64,000 nt of DNA from Heterodontus francisci (lineage: Eukaryota), in the NCBI RefSeq assembly GCF_036365525.1, contig NC_090416.1, positions 14,480,945 through 14,544,944 of the forward strand. Direction: 5' to 3'. Under the pieces are notes generated by a model that saw only the letters and a list, made by a program, of their open reading frames with translations, had not been told where the DNA came from and did not search any database. This document shows positions 38,060-59,900 of this stretch, one piece after another. The position numbers and the translations under genes were made by a program. Every line of letters starts with the position of its first letter. Position 1 is the stretch's first letter.

Positions 38060-41000
38060 ATGACTGCGGCTGTTACACTGTTGCTGTGTTCTACTTGGTT
38101 TGTTACATTGCATCCGGAATTGGCGCAGGGAGCTGATTCCTACCGCAGACAGGTAAAGGTGGGGCTTTCGCAGGAGGGCAGAGAGTCTTAAAATGTCCCC
38201 AACAGGGAGGGTTTAAATCCGATTTAAGGAGGTGGAGCAGTGCTTCCGCCGCACATGATGTTGGAAGAATGCAAATTAGAGAGAGGGGGTGAGATGCTGG
38301 GGGAGGGGGGCGGATGGAGGAGAACGAAAGAGATAATGAGTTTATTTCACAGCAGCCCTGTATCTTGGCCCTTGTCAGATTTCTATCTAGCCGGCTGCAC
38401 TCACTGTGCCCCCGCGCTCTGAAAGAAAGGCTGCAAATTGGACCCCTCTTGTGGCTTTGTTAAAGGGACCATTATGGAAATGTTGCCCCCAAAAGGTAGA
38501 ATCAAAGCGTGGTTGCAGCACAGAAGGAGGCCGTTTGGCCCGTTGAGCTCCCTGCTAGCTCTCTGCAAGAGCAATTTAGCTAGTCTCTACTCCCCTGTGT
38601 TTTCCCTGTAGCTCTACTCATTCTGTGTCTTTCCCCTAGTTTCGTCGCCAGGACTGTGCTGATCTCTCGGTGCAACAGAAGGATGGGCCTCAGTATCTCT
38701 AGGATAATGCCTTGCGGAGCAAATTAGCTGGTGTTCCTGCTCCTAGCTGGCGTTTTATGATGGGAATTACTCCTGTGGATGGGTTAAGGATAGAACTGGG
38801 CTTGGTTTTAATGGGACCGGCCGCCAACAATCACAAGTTGTGATGTGCGTACAGAATGGCTATTCCGCCATGGGGGGAGGGAAGAGAGGAATATGTTTGT
38901 CACTTGATGGTGGGGAGGGAGGATGAATTCTGATTGGAAGGTGTTGCACCCAATTTTTTTTATTTCTTTTCCTGGGGTGTGGGCATCGCTGGCCAGGCCA
39001 GCATTTATTGCCCATCCCTAATTGCCCCTGGAGAAGGTGGTGGTGAGCTGCCTTCTTGAATCGCTGCAGTCCATGTGGGGTAGGTACACCCACAGTGCTG
39101 TTAGGGAGGGAGTTTCAGGATTTTGACCCAGCGACAGTGAAGGAACGGCCGATGTAGTTCCAAGTCAGGATGGTGTGTGACTTGGAGGGGAACTTGCAGG
39201 TGGTGGTGTTCCCATGCGTCTGCTGCCCTTGTCCTTCTAGTGGGTAGAGGTCGCGGGTTTGGAAGGGGCCTTGGTGCGTTGCTGCAGTGCATCTTGTAGA
39301 TGGTACACACTGCTGCCACTGTGCGTTGGTGGTGGAGGGAGTGAATGTTTGTAGATGGGGTGCCAATCAAGCGGGCTGCTTTGTCCTGGATGGTGCCGAG
39401 CTTCTTGAGTGTTGTTGGAGCTGTACCCATCCAGGCAAGTGGAGAGTATTCCATCACACTCCTGACTTGTGCCTTGTAGATGGTGGACAGGCTTTGGGGA
39501 GTCAGGAGGTGAGTTACTCACCACAGAATTCCCAGCCTCTGACCTGCTCTTGTAACCACGGTATTTATATGGCTACTCCAGTTCAGTTTCTGGTCAATGG
39601 TAACCCCCAGGGGATTGATGGACTGCAGAATTATTTTTTAAATCTGAGTCCCACTGAGCTTGCTGGTTCTTGGTGGAGCAGTACTGCAGTATACTTTAAG
39701 ATCAGAGGTTGACTCTCCCCAACCCTGGCTGTGCCGTAATCACCCTGGCTGGAGAACACAATGCTGGTGGGATGTCTAGTGGACTACTGCAGTGCTGCAT
39801 CCAAATTGCTGAGGCCTGTTACAGTGTTGTATCTTTCCGTGTTTATATATCTCCGCTGAGTTGACGTAATGAAGTTTGAAATGAGGAAGTCTGAGTAGAG
39901 GAATAAGCCGAATGCTGAATCGGTGACTTGGCAGATGAGATCATTTTGGAACATATTAACTGCCCAGGCTCTCTATCCCCGGCCCCTGTGCTCTGTTTCA
40001 GTTCCACATTTGACCTCGAGTTGTTAAATCAGTGGATGCAGTGCGGCTGACAATTGTGTGTGTGTGTCTCTCTCTCTCTCTCAGGTTTCCTTTGAGTTTA
40101 ATCCTGGAAGGAATACCTCCGATAATGACCCCTCTCCCGTCGTTCCGAATGTGCTCCACGTGCGGGCGGTCGGCCGCAACGACACCATCCACTACCTGTG
40201 GAGCACGCTGGGGGCCCCGACCGTCCTGCTGGTCTACACCAGCAGCCCCCGCAGCTCGCTGCACGTCAACTGGACCCAGCTGGAGCTGAGGGACCCGTCG
40301 GGCGCCGTGCGAATCGAACCCGCCAAGGCGATCGTCTACTCCACTGCCGTTATCTTCTCAAAGGTGAGTGGGGGGAGGATGAGGGAGCCTCGTGCCGCTG
40401 TTGTGACGTAGGGAGCGCAGCCGCCGATTTCCGCACAGCAAGATCCCACAAACAGCACCGCGCCGATGACCAGATCTGATTTTGTTAGTGCTGTTTGGCT
40501 GAGGGATTAACGTCAGGACACGGGGGTGGGGGGAGGGCTCTTGCTTTCCTTCGAAATGGTGATCTCTTGCACCCACCTGAGAAGGGCAGACGGGGCCTTG
40601 GTTTAACCGATTGCCCCTCCACCAGTGCGGCACCCCCTTGGCACTGCCCTGAAGCGATATCAAGTGATACGCGAGTAGCAATGACTAGAAACTCTTGATA
40701 GCACCTTTTTTTTTAAAAACCCAATAACTTGACTGGTTTGAGTTCAAAGGTTACTGGGGCTATGGTCACTATGCCTATCTGTAGTTCTCGTATTAAGAGG
40801 TTCCACTGAGTAGAACGCCTCGTTTACCCAGTCTATCTGAGGACATACACACAGGCACAGCACAATGCAGAGGCCCCTTTATTTCTCATCATATCTACAA
40901 TGTAGCAGTTTGTTCAGTTATCGAGGAAATCTTGACCAACCTTTTCAAAACTCTTACCACACACTCTGTGGAAAATGGAAACCAACTTTACCTTATCGAT

Positions 41001-44000
41001 CGAGACAGATTTCAGACTGTTTGTATGTGAGGCAACTGGAGCCCAGTAAATCGTTGACCTGACCTGAGGGAATTATTGCTACACTCTCCGCATCTTTCCC
41101 AGCCCAAGTGCGCATTCTTTATGCGGGGAATTCAACCCTGGCGGGCCTCGCACCCCTCCCTATCTCTGTCACCTCCTCCAGCCCCGACACCCCTCCCTAT
41201 CTCTGTCACCTCCTCCAGCCCCTACACCCCTCCCTATCTCTGTCACCTCCTCCAGCCCCTACAACCCTCCGAGATCTTTGCCCATCCCCCCCAGTTCCCA
41301 TCGCTCCACCATTGGCGGCCGTGCCTTCAGCTGCCTGGGGGCCCTAAGCTCTGGAATTCCCTCCCTAAACCTCTCCCTCCCCCTCTCTTCCTTTAAGACG
41401 CTCCTTAAAACCGACCTCTTTGACCGAGCTTTTGGTCGCCTGTCCCTGATATCTTCTGACGTGGCTCGGGGTTAAATTTTTGTCTGATTGCGTTCCCATG
41501 ATGCATTGTTGTTTTTGTACTCTGTTCAAGGCGCTATATAAATGCAAGTTTTTTTTTCCGTCTGCAGTCCCGCCTCTGAGCAGAGTGGGAGGGTCACTGA
41601 TCGGCGAACAGGAGTCTTGTCTGTTACGTTCCCTGTTTTTGTTTTTCCCCCCTTCTCCACCCCCCCCCCCCCCCCCCCAACAAAACCCAATGGCACTGAG
41701 GCCAATTAGTATCCCCCTGAGAGGCAGAGACGTGTGACCTGCTGGCGACTGCAGTCCAGCTGCAATCTGTGTGATCAGTGCAGGCTGGAACACGAGCAGG
41801 CCATTCAGCCCATCTAGCCACTGAGGATCTTTGACTGGGAAAGGGACGTGGCCCAGATGAGAGGGGTGGGTTATGTTCAGCACATGGAGAAATGTCTTTT
41901 TAAAGAAACGTTTTCTTCTGCCCTGTCAGGTGTTCGAATACAATGATGTGAATGACACAGCCGACCTCTCTCGGACACCGGCCAGCAGCTTCTACCCGAC
42001 CTATTGGCTGGAGGACTTCACCTGGGACGACGTCAACGCCACCCTGAACCGGAGCCGGCTGACCGCCCAGCTCCGGGGCCGCAATGCCACCGGCCAGCTA
42101 TTTGGCAACGGCAGCATCACATTCCGGGTATGTGTGTTGAGGGAGGGGTTTGTTTCCGTAGAAACTGAGCAGCTCCCCTGCTGGCTCTGTTGGCTGACGG
42201 TTGCCCGCTGGCTGGCTGGGATCCGGCAGTAAAGCCCCAGCATCCCAGGCACGAGGCTGAATCTGTGATGCCCCCGCATGCCGAATAGTTATGTCCCAGG
42301 CTCTAATGAATGGGACAGAAGAGGTTACACTGTATCTAACCCCGTGCTGTACCTGTCCTGGGAGTGTTTGATGGGGGACAGTGTAGAGGGAGCTTTACTC
42401 TGTATCTAACCCCGTGCTGTACCTGTCCTGGGAGTGTTTGATGGGGACAGTGTAGAGGGAGCTTTACTCTGTATCTAACCCCCATGCTGTACCTGTCCTG
42501 GGAGTGTTTGATGGGGGACAGTGTAGAGGGAGCTTTACTCTGTATCTAACCCCCGTGCTGTACCTGTCCTGGGAGTGTTTGATGTGGGACAGTGTAGAGG
42601 GAGCTTTACTCTGTATCTAACCCCCGTGCTGTACCTGTCCTGGGAGTGTTTGATGTGGGCAGTGTAGAGGGAGCTTTACTCTGTATCTAACCCCCGTGCT
42701 GTACCTGTCCTGGGAGTGTTTGATGGGGACAGTGTAGAGGGAGCTTTACTCTGTATCTAACCCCCGTGCTGTACCTGTCCTGGGAGTGTTTGATAAAAGC
42801 AGTTGTTTTTTGTTGTTTCTGGAGCCCATGGTAACTGACTCGTGATTCCTGTTCCCCGTTTTGAATTCTTTTAGATCGCAGCTTTCGAAGACTCCGGCCG
42901 CGATTCTTTCCTGCCTCACCTCCTGCACACCGCCAACAGCTCGAAGCTGGAGTTTGTAATCGATGGGGTGGAGCCTCGAGGGAACCAGTCCCGCTTTGCC
43001 CTCGAGCTGATTGTGCTGGAGGCGGAGGGGGTGCAGCGAGAGCTGAGGGTGTGCCACACCATTGACGATGAATACACTCCCAGCATCTTCCAGGTACCCG
43101 ATCGGCCAAGGGCTCCTGCCCTTTGCCCAGTGCAGGTTAAGCGCAAGGTCGCGTGTAGTTGTGATGCCGTCTGTGGCAGAATAGCACCCCCCCCCCCGCC
43201 ACTGAGTCTCCTCAAGTACGCCTTGGGAATCGGAGCACTCGATCTGTGACTGTCCGTGCCTCCCGAGTGCAAAATGGGAAGTCAGTCTAAAGTAGCAAAG
43301 CAATGAGAGGATTTTTTTTTTTCATTTCTATAGCGCCTGTCACAATCTCAGGCTGGCCCATGGCGCTTTGCAGCCAATGAGGCACAGTCACTGTCCTAAT
43401 GCAGGAAACCTGGCAGCCATTCTGAGCACAGCAAGCTCCCGCAAACAGAAGTCAAAATGACCGCATCATCTGTTTTAGTGCTGGTGGTTGAGGGTCAAAT
43501 ATTGTCCTGGACTGTCCCTGCTCTTCGAGACAGTAGCTGTGGGATCCTTTACACCCAGAGGGCAGACGGGGCCCTAGTTTAGTGTCACATGTGAAAGACG
43601 GCGCCTCCGACAGTGCAGCACTCCCTCAGTACTGGCACTGGGAGTGTCGGCCTGGATCTTTTTGCTGATGCCACTGGAGTAGGGTTACCGAGAGCTGCAC
43701 GCTGAAGCACGGCTGATACTTTGATAAGGGGCATGTTTGTATGGCATTGATGGATTGACGAACTCTGAACTTTGCCCCCCCTCCAATCAGATGGACAAGC
43801 TGGTGGCGAAGGTGCGTAACGAGAGCGGGGTCACGAGCTTTCTGCAGTGGAAACCGGTCGCCTACAGCTCCCCGCAGGCAGCCCGGACCAACTCCGTGGC
43901 GACCCAGCACTACGGCCCCAGGCTAGGCCGCAACCAGAGCCTACCGGCCTCCAGCATCGCCTACGCCTTCTTCGGGCCTGTCCTGCACGGGGGATCCCGC

Positions 44001-45001
44001 GTCACAGCGATGAACATCTCCTTTGGGAGCCCCGAAGGGGAGCCCTACGACACCAGCAGATACATCAGCTGGTGAGTACTGGAGAGGGATGGGGGTGGAC
44101 TCAGGTGCTGGGGGTGGGGGGGTGCTTGAGTAACGCAAGGCCTGAGGCCTAGAAGGGAGGAGGCATCATCCTGAGGTCAAACAAGAAGGAAATGGAAGGC
44201 GAGGGGCAATTGGGAAGTGGCGGGTTGATTAAATACCGTGTTTGAAGGAGGAATTGATCCCAGTTTGGAGGGAGGATGGCTGAGGAGATGGACCTGGTGC
44301 GATAATCCTGTATTTGAATGCTGGGACGAGGGATGGTGTGTCAGGGTGGAGATTGGAAGTAACTGGAGAGGGAAAATTGAGAGGATGGAGGTGAGAAAGC
44401 TGTCTGTGTCTGTGCAGAGGGACTCTGGGGGGAATTAAACTTCACCCTACCCTGAACCTGCCTGACATTGACTAACACAGCATTAGTCTGGTGTCTCTCT
44501 CTGTGTCTCTCTCCCCCCGCTACTCCCCCCTCTCTCTTTGCCCCCCCCTTCTCTCTCCCTTCCCTCCCTCCCCCTTCCCTCCCTCCCCCCCCCTTCCCTC
44601 CCTCCCCCTCTTTCTCTCTCTGCTTCCCCCTCCTCCCTTTTTGTCTGACTCCTTTTTTCCCCTCTGGTATATGTGTCCCCTCTCTCTGTTCTCCAGAGAG
44701 TGGGAGCACCCCCCCCCGGGGAGACTAAAGGAGAGGCAGCAGCTGCAAATGTGAGTCAGTCAGATCTGACGTGATCGTGTGAGCGGGGGGTTCCATATTT
44801 AACCTTTACCCTTCCTCTCCACCCTGCAGGTCAGCCCTGATTGGATACGGAGAGGCACCAGAGGATGGTTTCTCTGGGATGGTCATAGCCATTATGGCTG
44901 TGGGACTGGGTCTACCTGTCCTCCTGTTGCTGCTTGGAGGAATTACAGTCAGCATCATTCACAGGAGGCGAAGGTCCTCCAACTACCAGTCAGTCAACTA
45001 A
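38060..45001 (+). CDS. GLMP: Glycosylated lysosomal membrane protein (NCU-G1/C1orf85), 413 aa; exons 38060-38152, 40085-40363, 41930-42127, 42875-43093, 43791-44071, 44830-45001
   Basis: Signal peptide; LHVRAVGRNDTIHYLWSTLGAP, PHLLHTANSS, IDDEYTPSIFQ, FLQWKPVAYS; C-terminal TM helix and NYQSVN lysosomal YxxPhi tail; many NxS/T sites; phases consistent. Confidence 0.96.
38965..39610 (-). mobile_element. CR1/L2-group LINE 3' fragment
   Basis: YKAQVRSVMEYSPLAW..IQDKAARLIG..SLHHQRTVAA RT C-terminal motif; a second copy lies on + at about 63665-64000. Confidence 0.8.
41140..41550 (+). mobile_element. L2-type LINE 3' fragment with a short internal tandem duplication
   Basis: CCACCATTGGCGGCCGTGCCTTCAGCTG..CTGGAATTCCCTCCC..CTTAAAACCGACCTCTTTGAC..GCGCTATATAAATGCAAG. 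Related copies at about 7530-7720, 31955-32210, 32645-33240(-), 49115-49445(-), 50890-51195, 62290-62630. Confidence 0.8.
42326..42794 (+). repeat. About 70-bp minisatellite (about 6.5 units) in GLMP intron 3
   Basis: Unit TGTATCTAACCCCGTGCTGTACCTGTCCTGGGAGTGTTTGATGGGGACAGTGTAGAGGGAGCTTTACTC recurs every 69-71 bp. Confidence 0.97.
43320..43670 (-). mobile_element. Deu-domain SINE (SacSINE1-like)
   Basis: Shared core with the other copies. Confidence 0.75.
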
Positions 45002-45205
45002 GCAACTCGAGGGAACTGACCGATAAAACGCACTTTAATGCTGGAGAATTTCCATTTCAGTGTGATATCTCCTGCTGTTCAGAACCGTGGTCGTCGTTTC
45101 AACAGTGGTTTTCCGGTACATTCTGGGGTCTGGGGCGTTGGCACTGAAATTTTACGACATTTAAAATGTAATTTTTTTTTTTCTTCCCAACAGTCTTCTC
45201 CCTTG

Positions 45206-45340
45206 AGGGACAGTGTAGAGGGAGCTTTACTCTGTATCTAACCCCGTACTGTATCTGCCCTGGGAGTGTTTGATGGGGGACAATGTAGAGGGAGCTTTAC
45301 TCTGTATCTAACCCCCGTGCTGTACCTGTCCTGGGAATGT
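45206..45340 (+). repeat. Two units of the same about 70-bp repeat, downstream of the GLMP stop
   Basis: GGGACAGTGTAGAGGGAGCTTTACTCTGTATCTAACCCCG occurs twice. Confidence 0.9.
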
Positions 45341-46794
45341 TCCCAAGGATGGGCAGCTCAACCGAGAAGCTGATGAGTTTGTCTATTAAAATCTGTTACA
45401 TTTTGTCTGGGTGAGGTTGAGTTTTTAACCTTTACCCAGTCGGGGGATGCAAATACTGAAACTGTCGAGTTGGGTTCAGGTTAATTGACCCTGGGCGTGT
45501 AAAATCCGATTGCATGTTCTTGGGTTCTACAGAACAGAATGGTGACTAAGTGGAACAGTGTGCCAAAAACAACCGGGTCAAAATTACGTGGTTTTTAATC
45601 AAACTGTTTCAAGCAGCTGAATAGTTTGTACACTTGCTGTTATCTCATTAAATTAACTTTTCAGATTAGGCCGTCATTTGTGTTTGTACAGCCACACGCT
45701 ATCTCGGAAGCACATTTACAGAAAACTGTGACAGCCAGTTGGCGCACAGCAAGATCCCACACCAATGAGCAGACCTTTTTTTTCTCCCCCTCGATGTTGT
45801 CTCTCCCTCTCTTTTCCCCCCCCCCCCCCCGGCATGGATTCTCACTCAGCTGTCGGCCTTCCCCGCTGGGGCTGCTACCGCTTGTGGTTATGGCCCACGG
45901 AGTGAGGGCTTCCATGGATGAATAGCCTCCCCCGCCCGGGCTCGAACACAAATGGGACTCTGTCGACAAGGCAGTCAGTTCGCTTCACAGACAACACATC
46001 ACATCGTCGAACGCTTCAACAAACGTGCACTACATCGAAAATACTTTACACAAATGTGGCTTACCCGAATGCTAAAACATTTTTGCATTTCTCTTCTAAG
46101 CTAAGGTTGCAACTTGAAATCTGGACGAGGCTGATGCACAGGAACCTGTGACTGGGTGGGGTGTTGCCATGAGGCCTTGTTGGTCAGGCTCTTGCTAGGG
46201 CAAAGTTCCTGGGGCTGCTGCAACTGGCCTTAGCTCCTTCCTGAGGGGTAGGCCGGGTTTGCGCTGCCAATCGCTGTTTTGGGGTGGGACTGGATGGAGC
46301 CAGGAGTAGCTGTGAGGCCCCCCTTAGTCCAACAGCCTGCCAACCCCTGCCTGTGAAGAATGGGGTCGGGGGCTGCCCGGAGCTGATGCCTGACCCCGTC
46401 CAAAGACTGGGGACGCTCGCCCCCATTTTGTTCCCCTTGTGACTGGGAGCCAGCACCGACCAGGCCTTAAATCCAGAACCTTCCCTCTGAGGAAATAATT
46501 ATTTGCATTAAAAAAAACCTTTAAACTCAGATTTCACAGGGGAGGACTGAGTTCAACTTTGGGGACTTTTCTGTTAATAACTTGCCCTGTTGACTAGAAG
46601 GTTAAAGGTCATACTCCCATTGAGGAGCAGTGGGCCTACTTGGTGGTTTTTACTTAACTCTGGACCCCCCCCTGCCAACCAACCCCAATCTATGACCCAG
46701 GATAACCTGGAGTTGGCCAGAAGCCTTTGGCCTACAACTCCCACTCCAATTTTCCTTAAACTTTAGCGGGGGGGAGGGGCGCTACCAACTTGTG

Positions 46795-47025
46795 TAGGCC
46801 GCCTGGATTGCCGTGGCAACCATCCCGTTGCGGCTTGTGCGTGAGTACAACCGCGGGGAGCAAGCGGAGTTTCTGGGCAAAATCTATAAATTAAAACAAG
46901 CAAAGTAGCGAGGTCGGAAGAGCGAAGCTTGACCTCGTTGCTGCGGTTCAGATCCTTACTGACGTAGGCCCGACTTGCTTATCAAGCTCTTTCTCGGAGT
47001 TGGATAAAGCAAACATGGCCGCCCA
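46795..47025. promoter_or_regulatory. CpG-rich promoter-like patch with RFX X-box, CRE half site and YY1-like motif
   Basis: ATTGCCGTGGCAAC 46807-46820; TGACGTA 46960-46966; AACATGGCCGCC about 47012-47023. Confidence 0.45.
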
Positions 47026-47314
47026 GTGCAGAGTAAATACAAATTGTTTGGGGTCCCACAAATATATATATTTACACAGTAAAGGAGCAACATAGCAACT
47101 GTTAGATGCAAAAAGGAAAATGACCGAGGAAGGTCCGGTGGTGTTGCCCGCTGCTGTCGCAGATGGTGTTGGTCTGTTTGGGACATCCATTGAGAACGGT
47201 TGCATGATCGGCATTGCTGAAAGTGAACTCGTGTGGGACGTGGATGCTGACAACACAAAAGTCCACTCCGGGTGCGGGGCTTGGGGACTTGTCACCCCTG
47301 TGCTTCCTGTCGGG

Positions 47315-50300
47315 TTAAGAATGAGCACGCTCTCCTGTCTCGGGATCGACCTCCATATCTGCAGAAGGGAAGGAAGGAGAGCCCATGTTAGAGAGAGAGA
47401 GAGAGAGCCTGTGTTTAGAGGGCGCCCTCCATGACTACCGAAGTACTTTGCGGCCAAGCCCCCTGATGTAGGGGACGCGGCGATTTGCGCACAGCAAGCT
47501 CCCGCGAGGGACCCCGAGCATCCGCACCATCTCGACCTCAGCTGGCCCAGGCAGGGCAGAAGTTTCGGAAGCTCCGCTTCCGGCGGGATAGCAGCGTAGA
47601 ACGCTCCCACGGGAAGCCGCGGAGCTCGGTCGCGAATCCGCCACGATCCCACTGAATAGCACGACAGGCCCGAGGGGGCTGAATTGGCCGTCTCCTGTCC
47701 CCCTATCTTCCGAAAATCCAGACCGGTGTTGCCCTGTCGGCTCCCTGCGTCTTACATACATAGATTCAGAACGTGAAATAGGAGCAAGAGGCCCCTCGGG
47801 CCTGCTCTGCCCTTTATTACAATCCAGCCGGATTGTCTCGCGTTATCCACAGATCCCTGAGAGACCAACAACCTCTCGGTATCTACCCTGTCAAATCCCC
47901 TCATAATTTGATACATTTCAATGTGATCATCTCTCATTCTACTCAATCTCTCCTCGGACACCCCAGGAATCAATCTAGTGAACATTCATTGCACCCCCCC
48001 TCTAAGGCAAGCATGTCCTTCCTTAGAGACAGAGACTAAAACTTTGCACAGTTCCCTAGGTGTGGTCTCACCAAAACCCTGTATAAATGCAGCAAGCCAT
48101 CCTTCCTCTTGTACTCTGACTCCATCACCATAAAGACCAACACGCCATTTGACTTCATTATTGCAGGGTGGCTGTGCTTCTTGTACAAGGGCACCCTAAT
48201 CCCTCCGAACGCCAATATTTAATACTTACCATTTAAAAAAAAAATTCTGCTTTTCTAGTCTTCCGACCAAACTGAATAACCTCTCACTTCCCCATGTTAT
48301 CTGCCACCTGTCCCCAATTACAGCACAGAAACAGACCATTCGGCCCATCTGCTCCGTGCTGGTGTTTCCGCGCCACACGAGCCTCCTCCCACCCCCTCTT
48401 CATCCCACCCTATCCCCATATCCTTCTTTTCCGTTCTCCCTCGTGTTTATCCAGCTTCCCTCTTAAATGTATCTCTGCTATTCCCCTCAACCACTCCCTG
48501 TGGTAGCGAGTTCCACATTCTCACCATTCTCGAGGGAAAGAATTCCTGAATTCCCCATTGGATTTATTAGTGACTGTCTTATATTGATGGCCCCCCCCTA
48601 GTTCTGGTCTCCCCCCACCACCACCACCCACCCCCCCCCCCCCCCCCCCCCAACAAGTGGAAAAATTCTCTCTCTCTACCCAGGGGTCACTCACCCATGC
48701 TCCAGATGCTTGGTTCTCTGTTCAGCTCCACCTGGACCTGGCAAAGTGGGAACGCCGGGGGCTGTGGGCCCTGTGCCAAGGTCTGAATCGAAGCTTGGCC
48801 CAAACTGTGGGCAGGACCGGTGCCCAGATGGTTAAACATGCTCCTCTCGTGCGGCGGCAGATTCCCAGAGACCGTGTTGAACGAGCGCCAGTGGTCAGGA
48901 AAACGCTCCGGGGGTTCCACCGGCACATCTGGGAAATCGGGAGAGAAGCAAGGATTCAGCGATCAGAAGAAAACCCAACAATGCTTCAACCTGATTTCCA
49001 TTTGCAATTGGTAATGGAAATTTGCTATGTAAACTTGTCACGCTGTGATTACACCCTCCTGCCAGGAGTGGCGCTGTGACGTGTCCATTATAGTGAGCTT
49101 GCCATTACAATAACATCAACTTGCATTTATATAGCACATTTAATGGAATAAAACGTCCCCAGGCACTTCACAAGAGTAAATAAAGTGTGATAGTGAGGCC
49201 CGAAGCAGAGGAAGGCAGGGATCTCAGAGGGTTGTAGAGGCTCGACGAGGTGACCGAGGTGGAGAGGGAGGGATGAGGAGGGCATGGAGAGATTTGAACA
49301 GGAGGATGCGAATTGAAAAAAAAAAATCGAGGCACGGCCAGAACGGGAGCCAATGTGTTTGTGAGCACAGGGGTAGACGGGCGAACAGAAATTGGTTTGG
49401 GGGAGTTGGGAGGGCGGGAGGAGGAGTTTTGGATGAGCTTAAGTTCAATGTGACAAATAGAAATGTTGACATAGGCACTTGTGGTAGAGAAGGCAGATGG
49501 AATGCTTTCCTTTATTGGCCGAGGTATAGAATACAAAAGGAGGGATGTGATGCTGGAACTGTGTAAAACGCTGGTTAGGTCACAGCTGGTGTATTGTGTA
49601 CAGTTCTGGTCACATTACAGGAAGGACAGAATTGCCCTGGAGAGAGTACAGAGGAGATTTACAGGAATGTTACCAGGGCTTGAAAGTTGCAGTTATGAGG
49701 AAAGATTGGATCGGCGAGAGTTGTTTTCCTTAGAACAGAGGAGGCTGAGGGGTGACTCAAAAGAGGTGTCCAAAATTATGAGGGGTCTAAGAGCAGACAG
49801 GAAGGACCTGTTTCCCCTATCGGAGAGGTCAGTTACCAGGAGACACAGATTTAAGGTGATTGGTAGAAGGATTAGAGGGGACATGAGGAAAACTTTTTCA
49901 CGCGGTGTGTGTCTGGAATTCACTGCCAGGAGCGGTGGTGGAGACAAAAAACCTCAAATCTTTTAAAAGGCACCCGTTCATGCGGCTGAAGTGCTGTAAA
50001 GTGCAGGGTAATGGACCAGATGCTGGGTGGGATTAGTTTGGGCGGATAGTTTAATCGGCCGGCACGGATACGATGGGCTGAATGGCCTCCATCAACATCT
50101 CCACATTGTTTGGAAGACAGAAGGAATATTTCGGGGCAGGTCCTGCTCAATGAGAAAAGCAGGCTTGGTCAATTTTACCGCACCTTCCTTGTTTGTAATT
50201 GTTTCCGTGTAGCAATTTCCCCTCCCAGGAGTGTTTCAAAACAAACTTTCAAAAAGTTTGTTTGTTGCAACAAAAAGTTTTTTCAAAGTTTTTTTTCCCC

Positions 50301-50535
50301 CCCCTCTGTCACCAGACTGTGAAGCCTCCACAAAAGGGGAGTGTTAACTGCCCTTAACAGGTCTTTTGGCGTTCAGTGCAATTATTTGGAAGGAATTAAG
50401 ACAACTTTTGCAGAACCTACTGTAGGTGTTGTTCCCCCGGAGCTTCCTGGCCAGTTTGCGGAGCGGGCAATGCTGGAAAGCCAGGCGGAAGATGCACTGC
50501 TTCCTTCGGTCCTGCATCCTCTCCGACGCTGCCAT
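47315..50535 (-). CDS. Putative uncharacterised 130-aa protein; exons 50421-50535, 48695-48928, 47315-47358
   Basis: Three non-repeat islands with canonical GT/AG sites, polypyrimidine tracts and matching phase-1 junctions; CpG-rich upstream region; AU-rich 3' region. Protein not recognised. Confidence 0.6.
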
Positions 50536-51754
50536 TCTCGCCCGTCCACGCTCACCCTCCTCTTCGGGAGGGGTAGCGGAGTCACTGGCTTCTCCAGCCC
50601 TTCGGAGGCGGAGACCGCCTTAAAGGCGCAGGGCACCGCTCAGCGAGGGAGGGAGGGAGCAATTGAGCCGACAGAAAATGCACCCTCTTCTCTCCCCTCC
50701 CCCCGCCCCACAAACACTTTTTTTTCCCCCTTTCTGCTTTTCATCCTGCCCATTTCTATTTGCTTTCAATCCAGTGACGTATTTCACAAATGGTCTACCC
50801 CTGTCTTTTCTCTTGTCGGTTCACCCCCATCGAGCCACCTCAATCCCTTTTAATCACTCCTTACCCCAACTAATATTGAGGTCCTCGCCTCTCCACCTCC
50901 CTATCTCTGTCACCCTCCCTCCAGACCCTACGACCCTCTGCCCTCCTCCAATTCCGGCCTCTTGCCCATCCCCCCCGATTCCCATCCATTGGCGGCCGGG
51001 CCTCCAGTTGCCTGGGAGCTCTGGAATTCCCTCCCTAAACCTCTCCGCCTCTCTCTCTCCTCCTTTAAAAAGCTCCTTAAAACCGACCTCTTTGCCGTGG
51101 TTTGGGTCGCCCGTCCCCTAATATCTCCTCATGTGGCTCGGGATCCAATGTTGTCTGATTTATGCTGCAGTGAAGCACCCTGCTATATAAATGTTGCACT
51201 GTCAGAGGTGCCGTCTTCTGATTGTTACGTCTGCCCCCTCGCAGGTGTGTGTAAAAGATCCCACGGCCACTATTGGAAGAGGAGTGGTGGGGGGGGGGGG
51301 GCAGAAGTTCTCCCTGGTGTCCTGAGACCAATATTTATCCCTCAACCCTACATCAGTAAAGAAAAGTTGATCCTGGTCATTATCACATCGCTGTTTGTGG
51401 GATCTTGCTGTGTGAAAATTGCCTGCCGCGTCTCCCACATGCCCTGAGGTCATGAGAGGGTCCGTGGAAAATAAATACTTTCTCTCCGTCCGAAACAATG
51501 TCAAAAATGGACCTGGTGAAATGCCATCCTGGTTTTTATTAACGTCCCAGTTTCTCATTTCTCAGAAGGTCCTCATTTCCTGATGAGCTGTGAGTGAAGT
51601 GAAACAGCCTTTTTGTTTTCTGAAATATTCAGTTTAGAGAGAATGATTTCAAGAGATGCTAAAGTAGCGAAATTTCCAACTCCGTTCTTCAATTCTCACT
51701 CGAACACGGTGAATAGGTTCACATTCAAAATTATAAGGCAGAAGTCTTACTCTG

Positions 51755-53695
51755 GAAATTCGAGCCCACAAACCAGGCCAACACTCCCAGTGCCAGTACT
51801 GAGGGAGTGTCGCACTGTCGGAGGGTCAGTACTGAGGGAGTGCTGCACTGTCAGAGGGTCAGTACTGAGGGAGTGCCGCACTGTCAGGGGGTCAGTACTG
51901 AGGGAGCGCCGCACTGTCGGTGGGTCAGTACTGAGGGAGTGTCGCACTGTCAGAGGGTCAGTACTGAGGGAGTGCCGCACTGTCGGAGGGTCAGTACTGA
52001 GGGAGTGCTGCACTGTCGGAGGGTCAGTACTGAGGGAGCGCTGCACTGTCGGAGGGTCAGTACTGAGGGAGTGCCGCACTGTCGGAGGGTCAATATTGAG
52101 GGAGCACCGCACTGTCAGAGGGTCAGTACTGAGGGAATGCCGCACTGTCGGAGGGTCAATATTGAGGGAGCACCGCACTGTCAGAGGGTCAGTACTGAGG
52201 GAGTGCCGCACTGTCGGAGGGTCAGTACTGAGGGAGCGCCGTACTGTCAGAGGGTCAGTACAGAGGGAGTGCCGCACTGTCAGAGGGTCAGTACAGAGGG
52301 AGTGCCGCACTGTCGGTGGGTCAGTACTGAGGGAGTGCCGCACTGTCAGAGGGTCAGTACTGAGGGAGTGCCGCACTGTCGGAGGGTCAGTACTGAGGGA
52401 GTGCCGCACTGTCGGAGGGTCAGTACTGAGGGAGCGCCGTACTGTCAGAGGGTCAGTACAGAGGGAGTGCCGCACTGTCAGAGGGTCAGTACAGAGGGAG
52501 TGCCGCACTGTCGGTGGGTCAGTACTGAGGGAGTGCTGCACTGTCAGAGTGTCAGTACTGAGGGAGTGCTGCACTGTCGGAGTGTCAGTACTGAGGGAGT
52601 GCTGCACTATCGTAGTGTCAGTACTGAGGGAGTGCTGCACTGTCGGAGGGTCAGTATTCAGCGAGCTCTGCACTGTCTGAGTGTCAGTACTGAGGGAGTG
52701 CTGCACTGTCGGAGGGTCAGTACTGAGGGAGTGCTGCACTGTTGGAGGGTCAGTAATGAGGGAGCGCCACACTGTCGGAGGGTCAGTCCTGAGGGAGTGC
52801 TGCACTGTTGGAGGGTCATTAATGAGGGAGCGCCGCACTGTCGGAGGGTCAGTGCAGAGGGAGCGCCGCACTGTCAGAGGGTCAGTACTGAGGGAGTGCC
52901 GCACTGTCGGAGGGTCAGTACAGAGGGAGCGCCGCACTGTCAGAGGGTCAGTACTGAGGGAGTGCCGCACTGTCGGAGGGTCAGTACTGAGGGCGCGCCG
53001 CACTGTCGGAGGGTCAGTACTGAGGGAGTGCCGCACTGTTGGAGGGTCACTGCAGAGGGAGCGCCGCACTGTCAGAGGGTCAGTACTGAGGGAGTGCCGC
53101 ACTGTCAGAGGGTCAGTACTGAGGGAGTGCTGCACTGTTGGAGGGTCAGTACTGTGAGTGTGCTGCACTGTCGGAGGGTCAGTATTCAGCGAGCACTGCA
53201 CTGTCTGAGTGTCAGTACTGAGGGAGTGCCGCACTGTCGGAGGGTCAGTACTGAGGGAGTGCCGCACTGTTGGAGGGTCAGTAATGAGGGAGCGCCACAG
53301 TGTCGGAGGGTCAGCACTGAGGGAGTGCTGCACTGTTGGAGGGTCAGTAATGAGGGAGCGCTGCACTGTCGGAGGGTCAGTACTGAGTGAGTGCCGCACC
53401 GTCGGAGGTGCTTTCTTTCGGATGAGACGCCTCATCTGCCCCTCTCAGGTGGATGTAAAAGATCCCATGGCCGCGATTGGAAGAACAGCGGGGGTGGGAG
53501 GGGGGTGGTGAGTTCACCCTGGGTCCAATATTTGTCCCTCAACCAACATCACTGTACAGACGATCTGTGTCGTAATCACAACGCTGTTTGTGGGATCTTG
53601 CTGTGCACCAATTGGCTGCCACGCTTCCTACATTGAAGCAGTGACTCCACTCGGGGCGACCTCAGGTGGCGAAAGGCGCTATAGAAATGCAAGTT
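51755..53695 (+). mobile_element. Deu-domain SINE (SacSINE1-like) with an internal 33-bp tandem expansion
   Basis: SINE sequence precedes the array and resumes in register at 53401 (GTCGGAGGTG..TCTTTCGGATGAGACG..GGATGTAAAAGATCCCATGG) through to the L2-like tail GCGCTATAGAAATGCAAG. Confidence 0.85.
51794..53408 (+). repeat. 33-bp minisatellite (about 49 units)
   Basis: Unit GTACTGAGGGAGTGCCGCACTGTCGGAGGGTCA with point variants. Confidence 0.98.
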
Positions 53696-53977
53696 AGTTA
53701 TTATCTGGCAACCTCCTCTTGAGGGACGCTGAATGAACACAAGATCTCACATTGCAGTTTGTTTTATTGACACCTTCACCTCCTTTGGCCTGAAGCGTGT
53801 TGCCAGGGAGCTACCAAGAGAATATATAAAAATGAATCGAGCACCCAGTGGAAACAGAACGTAGGGGGCAGAAAAAGCCTTTAAAAATATATCAGTAATT
53901 TCACTGTACAATAGTCCTAAAGTGGGCTGGTTGTCAGTCACCGTGGTAACAAGCGTCCGTTCTCTGAGGATTCTCCA

Positions 53978-56900
53978 TCAGCCCCAGAACCTCTGGCGTG
54001 GGCCTGAGGCCTTCTCCTGTCCTTCTGTCTCGCTGGCTGAGGTGGCAAACATCTTATCGGGAGCCAGGATGAACATGTAGCAGAGGTTGCAGACAAGTAG
54101 GCCGAGGACGGGGAAGAAGGTTAGGCCGTAACCGAAACCTCGGAAAGTGCTGCTGATGGCGAAGGTCAGCCAGTAAATCAACCTGGGGATGACGGAGAGT
54201 AAAGAGGGTTCCATTAATCCACACTCCACAACAGTGACCACATGTTCCCCTTCACTGACGTTGACTCATTCAGCCCTGTTCCATTCCACTTCTCTGGGAA
54301 TTTTGTAGCGATAGACTCATAGAAAGTTTATGGCACAGAAAGAGGCCACTTGGCCCATCGCGTCTGTGCCGGCCGGGGAAAAAAAAAAGGAGCCACCCGG
54401 CCTAATCCCACTGGATACCAGGAATGTCAGTGCTGGGAAAGGAAGATTCCCATTATCCTGTGAAACACTCCCAGCATCGGTTAGATACAGAGTAAATCTC
54501 CCTCCACACTGTCCCCATCAAACACTCCCAGGACAGGTACAGCACTGGGATTGGCCGGTCAATTTGGAGCACTTCCTGCCTGCAATCAGGGGGAGAGCTG
54601 CACCTGTGCTGCAGCAACTGCAGAGTGGAGAGTGGAATAACTGCAAAGAGGTGACTGTTACATGGAGACAGCTGCATTTACTGAGGAACTGTTGCACTTT
54701 TTCAAGGATTAAGAAGACCTGCAAGTCATTTTGGAGAGGTGGATGTTGGAGCACCAGAGAACTGTTGGTTGTTTGGACTGTTGGGGGAGGGAGGAGGCAC
54801 CGGAAGATCCAGGGGTGGGGCTGCCAAATTCTATAGGGAGCCCTTGTATTTGGTCTTGTGTTTATCTGCCATCCTGCACAAAAGGGGCTCCCTCCCCACC
54901 CCCAACTGTGTGGCTCGGGACAGCTGGAGCTGCCCGGCTGAAGACTAGCTTTATACAACAACAGAAAAGGGAGAGAACCGGGCGGCTCTAGCCGACCCGG
55001 GCGAAGAGCCCTCCCCTAACTGGAAGATTGAATTGTAGACTCTGCAGGAAGGTGCTCCAACCACCAAGTGAACTGCAACATCCTCGCAGCTGTTCTCTCT
55101 CTTCCATCACTTGGCCACCTATCCTCTCCTCTCCTTGTCCTTTTCAACCCTATCCTCCTCTACTCCCATCCCCACCTCCCCCATCATATTGTTTGTGTTA
55201 AAGAAAACTGTCGTGTGCTTTGTTTCTTGGGGGTGGGCGTAGCTCTGCGACCCCATGGCAAGCCCCTCTTCGCCGGTGGCGGGGCCTTCCCGTTTATATG
55301 CTGCTGCGGCTGCTGCAGCTGCACCTGTTGCCCCGTCACCGTTTGCTTTATTAACATCAAAGCATGGAGTCAAGAGCTACGTCCACCCGAACATGACTAT
55401 CGAGGCATGTGTGAAAGCAATGGCCGAGGTTGTCAGCCCTTCGGCCATTGTTGCAGCCTCTAAAATGTACGGGAAGGCAGTGTTATTTCTGAGGACCGAG
55501 CGGGCGGTGTCCCTGGCTCTGAGCAAGGGGCTCACCGTGGGCGGGACCTTTCTGCCAGTGGACCCCCTGGAGGCCACTGCGCAAAGGCTCATTCTATCCA
55601 ATGTCCCGCCCTTCATTCCTGGTGAGCTCCTCCTTCCCCACCTGCACCATTTGGGGGAGGTAAAGACGGGACTCACCCCAGTCCCGCTCGGTCTTCGGGA
55701 GAACAGCCTCCGACACGTGTACTCCTTCCGCCGCCAGTTATTCATGCAGCTGGCGCGGGAGGAGGTGACAGAGGGCCACTTTAATGTAGAATTCCAGGGG
55801 ACGGCCTACCGCGTCTTCTGGACCTTGGACGGGGTGCGGTGCCATGTCTGTAAGGGGGTGGGGCATGTTCGTAAGAACTGCCCCAACCTCCCGGCTGCCA
55901 ACTCCAACTCGGCGTCCCAGGGTGGCGACGCTGCACCTCCTCCCACCCCCCCTACACCACCACCAGATACCATTCAGTCGGTACCGGTTTTCACGGCCTC
56001 CGGCAGGGAGGGGGGTGACCATCCAAGTGGAAGGAAGGCGCGGAGGAGAAATAAACATCGAGAGGCGCGTCCCCTGGACACCGTGACACTACCCGAGTCT
56101 GAGCTCAGCACAAAGCCCGATCTCGGGAAGTCAACTTGCCCCAGGGCTGGGCTCAGGCCCAGGGTGAATAAAAAAAAGGAGAGTGTGGAGGTGGAGGCCT
56201 CTGATGACATGGAGGTCTCTGAGCCTCTGCGCCCTGGTGGGAAAAAGAGGTGAAGGCACCCCTCCACAGAGGTAATGAGGGGCCCTGAGGCGCAGGGCCC
56301 ATCTGTTGGAGGGGAGCTGTCTCCTGTCTCGGGTCCCCAGGTTTCCCCTACCGCTACCACCAAGGCTACAAAGTCCGGGCAGGAGCTCCCTATTCCTCAG
56401 GATGGAGGGGAGGGGAAGGCCCCGGTACATGAGGCCCCTCCTGAAGGAGTAAGTGGGGCCCTGCTTGTGGTGGGGGAGCCTGGGGACTCCGCCCATTCTG
56501 CCACTGCTACTGGGTCGGGTGCCCTGAGTGAAGGGGAGGGTGAGGCCCCAGAGGGTCGGCCCTCCCAGCCGGAGTCCACCGCCAACCAGGAGACACCCGA
56601 CCCAGTTATAACTGAGAATGCTGCCCCATCTGCTGGGCCTGTGGATGCTGACGGAGCGGGAGATGGCCTCCTCTCTCCGCCTCCAGTCTCGGCTCCGGCT
56701 GGTTTTCCGGAGTCGGGAACTTCTGTCTCCCCTGGACCACTCATTGGCCTGGGGACGGAGGTGGAGCGGGGTCCTGAACCGCTGGTGCCTACAGGCTCCA
56801 GTTTCACAATAGAACCCAGAGAGGACTCCTCCGCCATCGATCCTGGGGGTGGGATCGTGACGGAGGCGGGACCAGCTGGCGCGGCCGGGACGTCCGCCCC

Positions 56901-59900
56901 ACAGTGTGTAGTGGGCGTGTCGGCCGCTGGCGGTGACGACCCGGAGGAGGATGGGGATTCAGTGCGGGGCACGGAGGGTGATCTTGATTCCATCGCCAGT
57001 GAGGTGGTGGAGTCCCTCGTGCCTCCCACTGAATCTCCTCTCAACTCCGGGATTTCCTCGCGGTTTGCAGGGGCTGCCGCAATAAAGTTCAGCTGGCCCT
57101 CGACCGCTGGTCAAATCTGGCGCTGATCATCCAGTCCGTCCGTGCCGCCCTTAAGATAGCGGGCAAGCGCGCGGGCGTGAAACTGGTTGAGAGGCACCGT
57201 TTTAATGTGTTCCTCAATGGGTTGCTGGGGGAGTGGAGGGCCAGGTGCACTTCCACTCCCTCCTCACAGTGAGGTGTTGGTGACGGGTTTTAAGTACCTT
57301 TGACATGAAGATAACCATAGCCAGCCTCAACATCAACGGCAGCAGAGGGGCTCACCGCAGATTTCACAATCTCTCAGTCCTTAGGGAAGGGAGATACGCG
57401 GTGAGCTTTCTGCAGGAAACCCACACCGTTCCGGGAGACGAAGCTACCTGGCTCCTGGAGTGGCAGGGTGGGGTCTACATGAGTCACCTCACCCCTATTT
57501 CTAGTGGGGTGGCAATCTTGTTGGCCCCGACTTTTCAGCCGGAGATCTTGGGGGTCAAGGAGCTAGTGCCGGGCCGCTTGCTCCACCTCGCCGTTCGCCT
57601 GGGTAGCGTGCCGCTCCACTTTGTGAACGTGTACGCGCCCAGGCCCGGCGCGTTGCAAGCGCGCTTCTTTGAAGAAGTGTCCGCTCTCTTGAGCTCCATC
57701 GATAGCGGCGAGTGCATCATCCTCGGGGGGGATTTTAACTGCATCCTCGAGGTGGGGGATCGCTCCGGTCCCCAGCGCGGCCAAGCGTCGGTGGAGAAGT
57801 TGAGGGGACTGATCAGCTCCCTTAACTTGGTGGACGTCTGGCGGAATCTCCATCCCGACTCCAGCGCCTTCACGTGGAGGTCTGGAGGAGGAGGGTCGCG
57901 AATCGACCGCCTCTACATTTCGCAGGCGTACGCCTCCCGCGTCTCGGCAGCCTCCATGCGGCTGGTGCCGTGCTCGGACCACCGCCTGGTGTGGGCGGAG
58001 TTTACTCCGCTCCGCACGCGAGCGGGGTCCGCGTACTGGCACTTTAACAACCGGCTGCTGGAGGACGAGCGATTTCGGGACTCGTTCTGTCGATTCTGGG
58101 CCGACTGGAGAAGGAAGCAGGGGGGCTTCCCCTCCTTGAGGCTATGGTGGGATGTGGGCAAGACTCACATCCGCGTCTTCTGTCAGGAGTACGCGAAGGG
58201 GTCGACCAAGAGGCGGGAAACCGAGATCGGGCGCCTTGAGAGGGAGGTGCTCGACTTGGAGTCCCGCCTCGGTCATGCCGTCGTGGACCCGGCCCTGTGG
58301 CAGGCGTACAAAGAGAAGAAGGGCGCGCTGAGGGACCTGCAGCTCATAGGGTTCCTCAGCGCGTACGTGAGGTCGCGTATCCAGATCCTGGAAGATTTGG
58401 ACTGCGCCTCACCCTTCTTCTACTCGCTGGAAAAATGGCGGGGGGTCCGTAAGCAGCTCGTCGAGCTGCTGGCCGACGATGGATCCTCCACCACGGATCC
58501 GGAGGGAATGGGCCTCCTGGTCCGTAATTATTACAGTGCGTTGTTCTCTCCGGATCCGTCCAGCGAGGATGCGCGCAGAGTTTTGTGGGAGGACCTGCCG
58601 CAGGTCAGCCCGGTGGGCGCCGAAGGATTGTAGGCTCCGCTCACGTTGGCGGAGCTGACTGGCGCCCTCCACCAGCTCTCGAGGGGCAAATCCCCAGGGC
58701 TGGATGGGTTGACCGTGGAGTTCCTCAGGGCGTTCTGGGACGTCCTGGGGGACGATTACGCGCGGGTCCTGGGGGAAAGCCTGGCGACCGGGGAGATGCC
58801 CCTCTCGTGGCGCAGGGCGGTCATCGTCCTGCTGCCGAAGAGGGGCGATCTCCGCCTGCTTAAAAACTGGCGTCCGGTCTCCCTCCTCAGCACGGATTAT
58901 AAGATCTTTGCCCGGGCTATGTCTACTCGCCTGGGCTCCGTGCTGGCCCACATGATCCACCCCGACCAGTCCTACACGGTCCCGGGCCGGTCCATCCAGG
59001 ACAACATCCACCTGGTCCGGGACCTGATCCATCTTTCCCAGAGGACTGGTCAGTCGGTCGCCTTTCTCTCCCTCGATCAGGAGAAGGCGTTCGACAGGGT
59101 GGATCACGATTACCTTTTCGGGACTCTGCGCGCTTTCGGACTCGGGCCGCATTTTGTGGCCCAGGTCCGACTTTTATACGCCGCCGCAGAGTGTCTAGTC
59201 AAAGTTAACGGGTCCTTGACGGCGCCCCTTCGATTTGGGAGAGGAGTGCGTCAGGGATGCCCCATGTCCGGCCAATTGTATACCATCTGCGTGGAGCCCT
59301 TCCTGTGCCTGCTTCGCAGGAGGTTGACGGGATTGGCTCTGCGCGAGCCGGCCATGCGGGTCGTCCTCACGGCTTACGCCGACGACGTGCTCCTCGCAAT
59401 CACAGATCCCGTTGACTTGCGGAGGATGCGCGTCTGCCAGCAGACCTTTTCTGCCGCGTCCTCCGCGAGGATCAATTGGGAGAAATGTTCCGGACTCCTG
59501 GTTGGTCCGTGGCGGGTGGACTCCCTGCCGGAGGAGATGACACCTTTTGCGTGGAGCACCACGCACCTCCTCTATCTGGGAGTCCACCTTAGCCCCGCTG
59601 AGGAAGCCTGGCCGGCAAACTGGCAGGAGTTGGAGGCGAAAGTCACCGCTCGGCTGGGGCACTGGACAGGACTGCTCCGAGTGCTTTCCTACAGGGGCCG
59701 AGCGCTGGTCATAAACCAACTGGTGGCCTCCATGTTGTGGTCCCGGTTGGTCACTTTGGCCCCGCCCCCTGTATTTGCCACCAAGATCCAGAAGAAACTC
59801 GTCGATTTCTTCTGGGGCAAGAGGAAACACTGGGTCTCTGCCGCGGTCCTGAGTCTCCCGATCGAGGAGGGCGGTCAGTCGCTGGTGTGCGTCCGCACCC

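Follow-up and report, generated by a model that had tools for sequence, protein, structure and literature searches.

Between the gene for GLMP and the last exon of a presumed TMEM79-like gene, the shark Heterodontus francisci carries a small three-exon gene with no name, and the question raised by this locus is what its 130-residue product does. The window analysed is a stretch of 64,000 nucleotides (assembly GCF_036365525.1, contig NC_090416.1, positions 14,480,945 to 14,544,944). The product ends in a DPETGE motif of the type bound by KEAP1. The KEAP1-NRF2 pair is the main oxidative-stress switch of vertebrates, and most proteins known to compete in it have several domains and other functions.

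Gene structure and transcripts

Three coding exons of 115, 234 and 44 nt make up a 393-nt frame of 130 codons on the minus strand, with GT-AG sites and polypyrimidine tracts at both introns (Table 1). The earlier note had proposed these exons, their in-frame splicing and the 130-residue product, all of which were reproduced by re-translation; its placing of an uncharacterised spliced gene between GLMP and a TMEM79-like exon is likewise supported, GLMP being recognised by its NCU-G1 exons and the gene itself matching no named family. The RefSeq model P0004 of Cetorhinus is collinear with the three exons and gapless at both junctions (identity 90% for residues 1-39, 64% for 40-116 and 83% for 111-128). 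Repeats, counted as sequences found elsewhere in a 203-kb sample, cover 0% of the exons and UTRs. The exons are thus unique, as had been claimed, and the introns are more exactly described as about half repeats than as mostly LINE debris. No paralogue was found in the genome at E<0.1 with P0004 as the query, a single-sequence search that weak paralogues could escape, and the gene is single copy.

Table 1. Features of the locus and its neighbours (positions in the window)
Feature	Position	Strand	Remarks
GLMP (Pfam NCU-G1 exons)	40028..44998	+	neighbour, convergent with the gene
3' UTR, at least ~1.5 kb	45830..47314	-	from contigs; converges on GLMP 3' end
Exon 3, coding part	47315..47358	-	frame ends four residues past DPETGE
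DPETGE, residues 121-126	47330..47347	-	KEAP1-binding-type DxETGE motif; beta-hairpin predicted
Intron 2	47359..48694	-	phase 1; 50% repeat; LINE ORF2 fragments near 48000-48310
Coding exon 2	48695..48928	-	conserved Trp52, then variable, predicted-disordered linker without lysine
Intron 1	48929..50420	-	phase 1; 46% repeat; LINE ORF2 fragment at 49481-49897
Coding exon 1	50421..50535	-	basic block with invariant Arg10 and Cys14 (RR-x-x-C..R..P..R..Y); short predicted helix 15-21
Presumed 5' UTR, minimum extent	50536..50580	-	from 394 unplaced letters of one contig record
Upstream 13-mer	50619..50631	-	shared with the GLMP upstream region; likely general core-promoter element
Last exon of presumed TMEM79-like gene	53751..54184	-	neighbour; no Pfam match

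Transcript-like contigs from three runs of a single sample (organism A), with 0 other letters, stop at 47358, the exon 3 acceptor, and a contig from one run of a second study (organism B) stops at 47359. Contigs extend across the 3' UTR over 45829-47358, 45845-47358 and 46034-47358. Beyond the acceptor the four contigs carry 33, 394, 308 and 314 extra letters, which would be exon 2 and exon 1, 394 being 234 + 160. The RNA nature of the runs was guessed (five such guesses, four of which aligned), and one run so guessed carries GLMP exons joined on a single record. The gene is real, spliced and protein-coding.

An unnamed family of jawed vertebrates

Relatives occur in sharks, bichir, eels, other teleosts, coelacanth, caecilian, newts and frogs, and the family tree broadly follows the species. 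All are uncharacterised; their source labels are "uncharacterised" or "hypothetical", except for one "involucrin-like". The gene is a single-copy, three-exon member of an unnamed family of jawed vertebrates, already modelled in many fish and amphibians ("uncharacterized LOC", "hypothetical") and neither shark-specific nor unannotated. LOC144677062 (Cetorhinus), chiPu_0018006 (Chiloscyllium), LOC106706090 (Latimeria) and LOC108700400 (Xenopus laevis) belong to the same family and are likely orthologues, all without name or function. Among the family hits there were no named amniote members and no zebrafish records. In the main texts of the open-access literature no paper was found for 12 gene or protein identifiers of the family, the strings DPETGER, VDPETGE and IDPETGE led to three bacterial papers, and none of the titles listed in further searches dealt with the family.

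There are two conserved blocks, a basic N-terminus with a cysteine, in which R10 and C14 are invariant (32/32 alignment rows), and the C-terminal [VI]DPETGE. The linker between them can hardly be aligned (mean column identity 21%), and in a 73-residue teleost form, P0036, both blocks remain while most of the linker is gone. The earlier note had described a basic N-terminus and an acidic DMEVD tail; the basic block stands, and what is informative in the tail is the DPETGE that follows rather than DMEVD. The N-terminus is basic and amphipathic and could be a mitochondrial presequence, but it contains 1-4 acidic residues in all nine proteins checked and its hydrophobic moment ranges from 0.47 to 0.86.

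Domain and structure searches gave no assignment. Pfam had no family above cut-off for the exons or for 32 members (best E 0.04, sub-threshold), and the family profile matched 0 PDB sequences at E<=10. ESM Atlas queries with P0004 and P0039 returned no usable feature match, structure matches from a model of pLDDT 0.27 being ignored, and no relative turned up when metagenomes were scanned with the family alignment.

The C-terminal motif

DPETGE is present in 38 of the 39 proteins compared, a set that includes isoforms, fragments and close kin, and to which the third search contributed with a profile that contained the motif. It is preceded by V or I in 38/38, followed by R in 37/38, and lies exactly four residues from the C-terminal end in 33/38; the sole protein without it is P0013, a predicted model whose C-terminus differs. 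The motif is not merely a product of the search, because the first distant relatives (coelacanth and two frogs) were found through the N-terminus as their best stretch. For a protein of the same size and composition the chance of a strict DxETGE is ~5e-5 and of a loose form ~4e-3, the motif having been chosen post hoc. AlphaFold2 predicts the Cetorhinus protein to be disordered (mean pLDDT 58.7, pTM 0.16) except for the tail, where a strand bridge joins 120 and 127 and pLDDT is 85 for residues 121-128.

D-P-x-T-G is a turn of a generic kind, and 601 metagenome stretches encode DPETGERA, none of them a relative. The motif-coding pattern also occurs in the genome at G000:C12:38579299, in a 79-codon frame; this locus was set aside, since chance alone would give ~0.7 such matches and the frame has no start codon.

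The KEAP1 pocket and known ligands

The same genome encodes KEAP1 (83.04-83.06 Mb of contig C8), which matches human KEAP1 at E 1e-147 and keeps 14/14 pocket residues (Y334, S363, R380, N382, N414, R415, R483, S508, Y525, Q530, S555, Y572, F577 and S602), taken from the pocket list in PMC10087726 and read by eye from alignments with human numbering that assumes a 7-residue tag offset. A second KEAP1-like gene lies on contig C36. The KEAP1 copies of this genome are split by introns, as are the three best of 27 metagenome loci.

DxETGE is described as binding KEAP1 in a beta-hairpin via its two glutamates, and Pro at x as giving the largest affinity gain among natural residues (PMC8660007; PMC10087726). 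DPETGE is also the core of a KEAP1 ligand selected by phage display (PMC8660007), and the reported IC50 of Ac-DPETGEL-OH is 0.115 uM, vs 5.39 uM and 34.4 uM for the 7-mers of NRF2 and p62, respectively (PMC8660007; PMC10087726; structure PDB 6FMQ). Ac-DPETGEL and LDPETGELL (PDB 6FMQ) share the six-residue core with the family, and the preceding hydrophobic residue is V/I here and L there; unlike these engineered peptides, the family protein is a natural gene product with Arg-Ala after the core in place of Leu.

The features expected of an ETGE protein bound by the KEAP1 Kelch domain are thus found together: a DxETGE motif, predicted disorder with a predicted hairpin, and a KEAP1 gene in the genome whose pocket is intact. 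It is probable, judging from sequence and predicted structure, that the predicted-disordered product binds KEAP1 via its C-terminal DPETGE. Against such binding, the cited potent peptides all carry a hydrophobic L, F or Y after ETGE where the family has Arg, and removal of Phe83 is reported to inactivate the NRF2 7-mer (PMC10087726). Nor is an ETGE proof of binding: DPP9 has one and is described as binding via ESGE (PMC11816071), and Nrf1 has such motifs with, according to one paper, no reported KEAP1 interaction. KEAP1 binding alone leaves the conserved Arg-Ala, an upstream M-[DE]-x-D and the fixed distance to the C-terminus unexplained.

Competitor or substrate

The likeness to the Neh2 region of NRF2 (NFE2L2) lies in a DxETGE hexamer within a disordered region, its hairpin being predicted here and solved for NRF2. 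The family protein differs in Pro at x, Arg instead of Phe after the motif, and the C-terminal position of the motif; it also lacks a DLG motif, a lysine-rich helix flanked by two motifs, and a bZIP or any other Pfam domain. With p62/SQSTM1 (DPSTGE), which competes with NRF2, it shares D-P-x-T-G-E including the Pro, and has no sequence family link and none of the PB1, ZZ, LIR and UBA domains. Phosphorylation tightens the binding of p62 to KEAP1; in the family motif Glu replaces the Ser, so phosphorylation would be unneeded. The Pro of the DPETGE ligand was itself taken from p62 and is described as stabilising the turn (PMC8660007), and known ETGE proteins are reported to compete with NRF2 (PMC11816071). 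Two further KEAP1 partners listed in PMC11816071 resemble the family protein, prothymosin alpha (ENGE) in being described as intrinsically disordered and PGAM5 (ESGE) in joining an N-terminus for targeting to a single KEAP1 motif; no homology to either was found, and they have other main jobs, whereas in the family little is conserved apart from the two short blocks.

On balance, we favour by a modest degree a small KEAP1-binding competitor, or decoy, that would displace and stabilise NRF2 and so raise antioxidant gene expression, the DPETGE hairpin docking in the Kelch pocket and the docked tail displacing NRF2. The basic, cysteine-bearing N-terminal block may set location (nucleus or membrane) or stability and so be the input relayed to KEAP1, with the linker a mere spacer. 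These are the most speculative parts of the scheme.

The same motif would also suit a substrate or tether of KEAP1, which CUL3-KEAP1 keeps scarce or which anchors KEAP1 to a compartment in the manner of PGAM5, the N-terminal block being an effector freed by oxidative stress and thus a second output beside NRF2. PGAM5 is a precedent, being reportedly ubiquitinated by KEAP1 via one ESGE and tethering KEAP1-NRF2 to mitochondria; the N-terminal block, moreover, is as conserved as the tail and holds the lysines. A competitor is preferred over a substrate because the family alignment has no conserved DLG-like column as a second site, and because exons 2 and 3 of the Heterodontus gene encode no lysine, which is likewise absent after residue 40 in 5/8 proteins checked; the protein does not look like an NRF2-type two-site substrate on these grounds. 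Neither Pfam nor AlphaFold2 points to a folded effector domain, and we regard a substrate or tether as a tentative alternative, unlikely overall.

The likeness to ETGE might instead be incidental, the tail being a C-terminal degron or the ligand of another propeller protein, and the product a short-lived regulator acting via its N-terminus. The motif's position four residues from the end would suit this, DPETG is a common turn, and 17 of the 38 motif-bearing proteins have an R-x-x-G end of the APPBP2 type (PMC7458402). An APPBP2-type R-x(2-4)-G is not found at the C-terminus of the Heterodontus protein, which has no Gly after the Arg; the terminal Gly is also absent in both other sharks and all frogs, whereas DPETGE is invariant. 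C-degrons as described in PMC7458402 depend on one or two residues, whereas here six are invariant. This reading is improbable.

It is highly improbable that the gene is TSACC in diverged form or any other gene that already has a name. TSACC presumably lies in the same human neighbourhood, no TSACC match rises above cut-off in this genome, and a zebrafish clone-style name could exist given the lack of zebrafish hits. The faint TSACC similarity suggested in the earlier note found no support: TSACC (SSTK-IP, PF15836) resembles the product in length, but its HMM matches 0/32 members at E<=0.1 and not this locus, the compared stretch sits in the unconserved linker, and the source labels of the members, one "involucrin-like" apart, name no known gene. 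That the exons are chance or non-coding sequence, as the guessed nature of the runs and the presumed continuation of the contigs into exons 2 and 1 might allow, is a negligible possibility beside the conservation of the protein from sharks to ray-finned fish, coelacanth and amphibians, a tree in broad agreement with the species, a collinear RefSeq model and contigs ending at the exon 3 acceptor.

Implications

If the competitor reading is true, a small gene would have been kept mainly for its ETGE tail as a purpose-built regulator of the KEAP1-NRF2 switch, with the same core that phage display later selected as a tighter KEAP1 ligand, and findings on NRF2 in fish and frogs would then carry over to mammals differently. 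Keap1a, the second KEAP1 gene, is reported lost in amniotes (PMC6155405), and the apparent absence of the family from amniotes gives a way into the question of why two KEAP1 genes persist in fish and amphibians. A larger and distinctly doubtful version would have an ancient, dedicated endogenous NRF2 activator built as a relay of two modules, in which the basic cysteine block senses stress or location and the naturally optimised DPETGE tail sits in KEAP1. Sharks, bony fish and amphibians would have retained this activator, and amniotes would have lost it, or let it degenerate, along with Keap1a. Even with an inert motif there is an unnamed conserved vertebrate gene family, and gene models already exist in Xenopus and fish.

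Regulatory sequences

The Pumilio element TGTAAATA noted earlier downstream of the gene (47076-47069) does lie in the 3' UTR; one site in 1.5 kb is weak evidence, because the window holds 5 such sites on both strands. Feedback on the gene through an ARE was considered and dropped: a lone TGACnnnGC core at 50584-50576 is one of 89 in the window, many of them in a tandem repeat, the extended ARE pattern has 0 matches between 47000 and 53800, and the ARE content of the promoter is not above chance. The CpG-rich upstream motif, claimed to occur also before GLMP, is present in both places. We read this 13-mer as TATA-like; it is likely a general promoter element, not specific to this gene, because it has 72 copies in the genome vs 2 for a reversed control.

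Gene and family

The three exons proposed in the earlier note were reproduced (115 + 234 + 44 = 393 nt; GT-AG introns, both phase 1), and their sum translates to the same 130 residues. The gene is single copy in this genome. Its exons, as had been claimed, and also its UTRs are unique; "mostly LINE debris" overstated the intron content, since repeats found again in a 203-kb genome sample account for 46% of intron 1 and 50% of intron 2, with LINE ORF2 fragments in both.

Exon 2 led to the first relative, RefSeq model LOC144677062 of the basking shark, whose isoforms have 123 and 128 aa; the 128-aa form is collinear with all three exons with zero gap at the junctions. A bamboo-shark protein was the next relative, and an index-free search added coelacanth, Pelobates and Xenopus laevis, with the best stretches N-terminal. 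Of 8000 candidates scored in a profile search, 37 proteins reached E<=10 and 30 of these also E<=0.001. They belong to frogs, newts, a caecilian, a bichir, four eels and five other named teleosts, together with ten unnamed Logan proteins; their labels are uncharacterised or hypothetical, except one 'involucrin-like'. The tree (31 rows; 8 of 39 proteins omitted: two isoforms, four fragments, one short and one extended form) broadly matches species relationships. The gene is a real, conserved vertebrate gene, unnamed and uncharacterised as first described, but not unrecognised in the sense of unmodelled, models being already present in many genomes.

No Pfam family was matched by exons or members, no PDB relative was found, and the ESM Atlas gave no usable matches. 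In the open-access literature, no paper named 12 of the family's identifiers, and none described such a gene. Identity with TSACC, to which a faint similarity had been suggested, was rejected: neither the gene nor family members match it, and TSACC (PF15836) is above cut-off nowhere in the whole genome (best E 2.97).

The profile search, which needs shared words, gave no named member from amniotes, jawless fish or invertebrates. Logan protein P0025 is tetrapod-like; its N-terminal block is degenerate, and Trp replaces Arg after the C-terminal DPETGE. Its branch is long and falls among tetrapods but with neither frogs nor newts. Given this branch and the shared-word requirement, the absence from amniotes is only apparent evidence of loss; if P0025 is amniote, it would show the family decaying there.

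Conserved blocks

The alignment (32 rows; 7 of 39 omitted as isoforms or fragments) has two conserved blocks, N-terminal and C-terminal, joined by a hardly alignable linker of ~30 to 150 residues. The first, mostly exon 1, keeps R10 and C14 in all 32 rows, R33 in 31, R17, P24 and Y38 in 30 and R11 in 29, with ten or eleven basic residues within the first 36; W52, after this block, is kept in 31. We infer that it may be a localisation signal, a membrane anchor or a cysteine-based stability switch.

DPETGE (residues 121-126) occurs in 38 of the 39 family proteins, kin and isoforms included; it is missing from one predicted Xenopus tropicalis protein, which has a different C-terminus. The preceding residue is V or I in all 38, R follows in 37, and in 33 the motif stops four residues short of the C-terminus. 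AlphaFold2 on the alignment predicted the chain to be disordered (mean pLDDT 58.7, pTM 0.16) and to contain a short helix over residues 15-21; a strand bridge 120-127 closes the single confident part, 121-128 (pLDDT 85).

DPETGE as a candidate KEAP1 ligand

NRF2 binds KEAP1 with high affinity through DxETGE, which docks as a beta-hairpin, one glutamate contacting R415/R483/S508 and the other S363/R380/N382; among natural residues at x, Pro gives the largest affinity gain (PMC10087726). A phage-display-selected core is identical to DPETGE: Ac-DPETGEL-OH has an IC50 of 0.115 uM (NRF2 7-mer, 5.39 uM; p62 7-mer, 34.4 uM), and LDPETGELL has a Kd of 4.65 nM (PMC8660007; PMC10087726). Chance expectation in proteins of the same size and composition is ~5e-5 for strict DxETGE and 4e-3 for a loose form, the motif having been noticed after the fact; its place is nevertheless that of the most conserved block. 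The product probably binds KEAP1.

Potent KEAP1 peptides carry Leu, Phe or Tyr after the motif, whereas the product has Arg, and loss of Phe83 abolishes activity of the NRF2 7-mer (PMC10087726). A protein may also leave its ETGE unused: DPP9 binds through another motif (PMC11816071), and Nrf1 is stated to have the motifs with no reported KEAP1 interaction (PMC11721785).

NRF2 competitors with ETGE-type motifs include p62, PALB2, DPP3, MCM3, PGAM5 and prothymosin alpha (PMC11816071). The DPETGE tail would likewise occupy KEAP1 in competition with NRF2, and such a decoy role is slightly favoured. A competitor is preferred to a substrate because a second DLG-type site is lacking and because the product, like 5 of 8 relatives checked, carries no lysine beyond residue 40; a KEAP1 substrate or tether is less likely. 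The tail could instead form part of a C-degron of the type in PMC7458402, which would fit its fixed distance to the C-terminus and the R-x-x-G end of 17 of 38 relatives, but the terminal Gly is absent from the product, other sharks and frogs. DPETG is, besides, a generic turn: 601 unrelated metagenome stretches encode DPETGERA.

A second genomic V-D-P-E-T-G-E-R lies just after a possible CAG acceptor; it is consistent with chance, though it may instead mark an exon from a different ETGE protein.

In support of binding, the partner is present: a Kelch scan located KEAP1 (E 1e-147 to human KEAP1; 14 of 14 checked pocket residues kept). A second KEAP1-like gene, with Phe at the positions matching Y525 and Y572, we read as Keap1a; it keeps the S602-matching Ser, in contrast to Keap1a of frogs and fish, where S602 is described as not conserved (PMC6155405). 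Fish, coelacanth and frog have two KEAP1 genes, the second being lost in amniotes (PMC6155405). This range equals that of the named family members, and we hypothesise a link.

Transcript, promoter and neighbours

Five sequencing runs, none recorded as RNA, contain 5-20% of locus words. Transcript evidence comes from contigs of four: X1, X2 and X3 share a sample, and X5 is from a different organism and study. They behave as spliced RNA, in that an X2 record joins GLMP 44829-45233 and 43788-44070 at adjacent positions. Contigs stop at the first base of exon 3 in X1, X2 and X3 (zero other letters) and at 47359 in X5, with 33, 394, 308 and 314 letters beyond it, respectively. By arithmetic, the 394 letters have the summed length of exon 2 and a 160-base exon 1; the transcript would then begin near 50580, ~40 bases downstream of the 13-mer. 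Exon 3 contigs extend to ~45830, so that the 3' UTR measures 1.5 kb or more.

The 13-mer is shared with GLMP, as the earlier note had it. Because it has 72 copies genome-wide against 2 for the reversed control, it is read as a general enriched motif, likely a core-promoter element in this genome. An ARE-like core near the inferred start is not above chance frequency.

At the exon 1/2 junction, isoforms differ by five residues in Cetorhinus (P0003/P0004) and likewise in Pelobates (P0007/P0009). In the short teleost form P0036, most of the linker is missing. Alternative splicing beside the conserved Tyr is possibly conserved across species.

The 3' UTRs of GLMP and of the gene appear abutting or overlapping, on contigs without strand; the polyadenylation-type signals found are ATTAAA-type only. 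The tandem arrays produce long spurious open frames. One of the two near-complete LINE-type retrotransposons has an SGNH/GDSL-esterase ORF1 and an endonuclease-RT ORF2, and the other has endonuclease, RT and zinc-binding parts.

Positions of features in the window, or in the Heterodontus francisci genome (G000) where so prefixed
Feature	Position	Strand	Remark
Exon 1	50535-50421	-
Exon 2	48928-48695	-
Exon 3	47358-47315	-
Upstream 13-mer	50619-50631; 37995-38007		second before GLMP
ARE-like TGACnnnGC	50576-50584	-
Apparent 3' UTR abutment or overlap	45233-46840
X5 contig	45307-46840		single
X1-X3 contigs	45312-45756; 45829 onward		tiled
ATTAAA-type signals	45385, 45647, 46507, 46890	+
ATTAAA-type signal	45599-45594	-
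GLMP	40028-44998	+	four NCU-G1 matches
Cpn60/CCT-type exon	near 21190-21699		sub-threshold
Neighbour's last exon	53751-54184		transcribed; presumably TMEM79
Tandem array	13325-18240		28-bp unit, ~175 copies
Tandem array	51794-53408		33-bp unit, ~49 copies
LINE-type element	22275-26110	-
LINE-type element	55243-61039	+
KEAP1	G000:C8:83040000-83064500		L040, L041
KEAP1-like gene	G000:C36:4030000-4062500		L042, L043
Second V-D-P-E-T-G-E-R	G000:C12:38579299		L044:1492-1728
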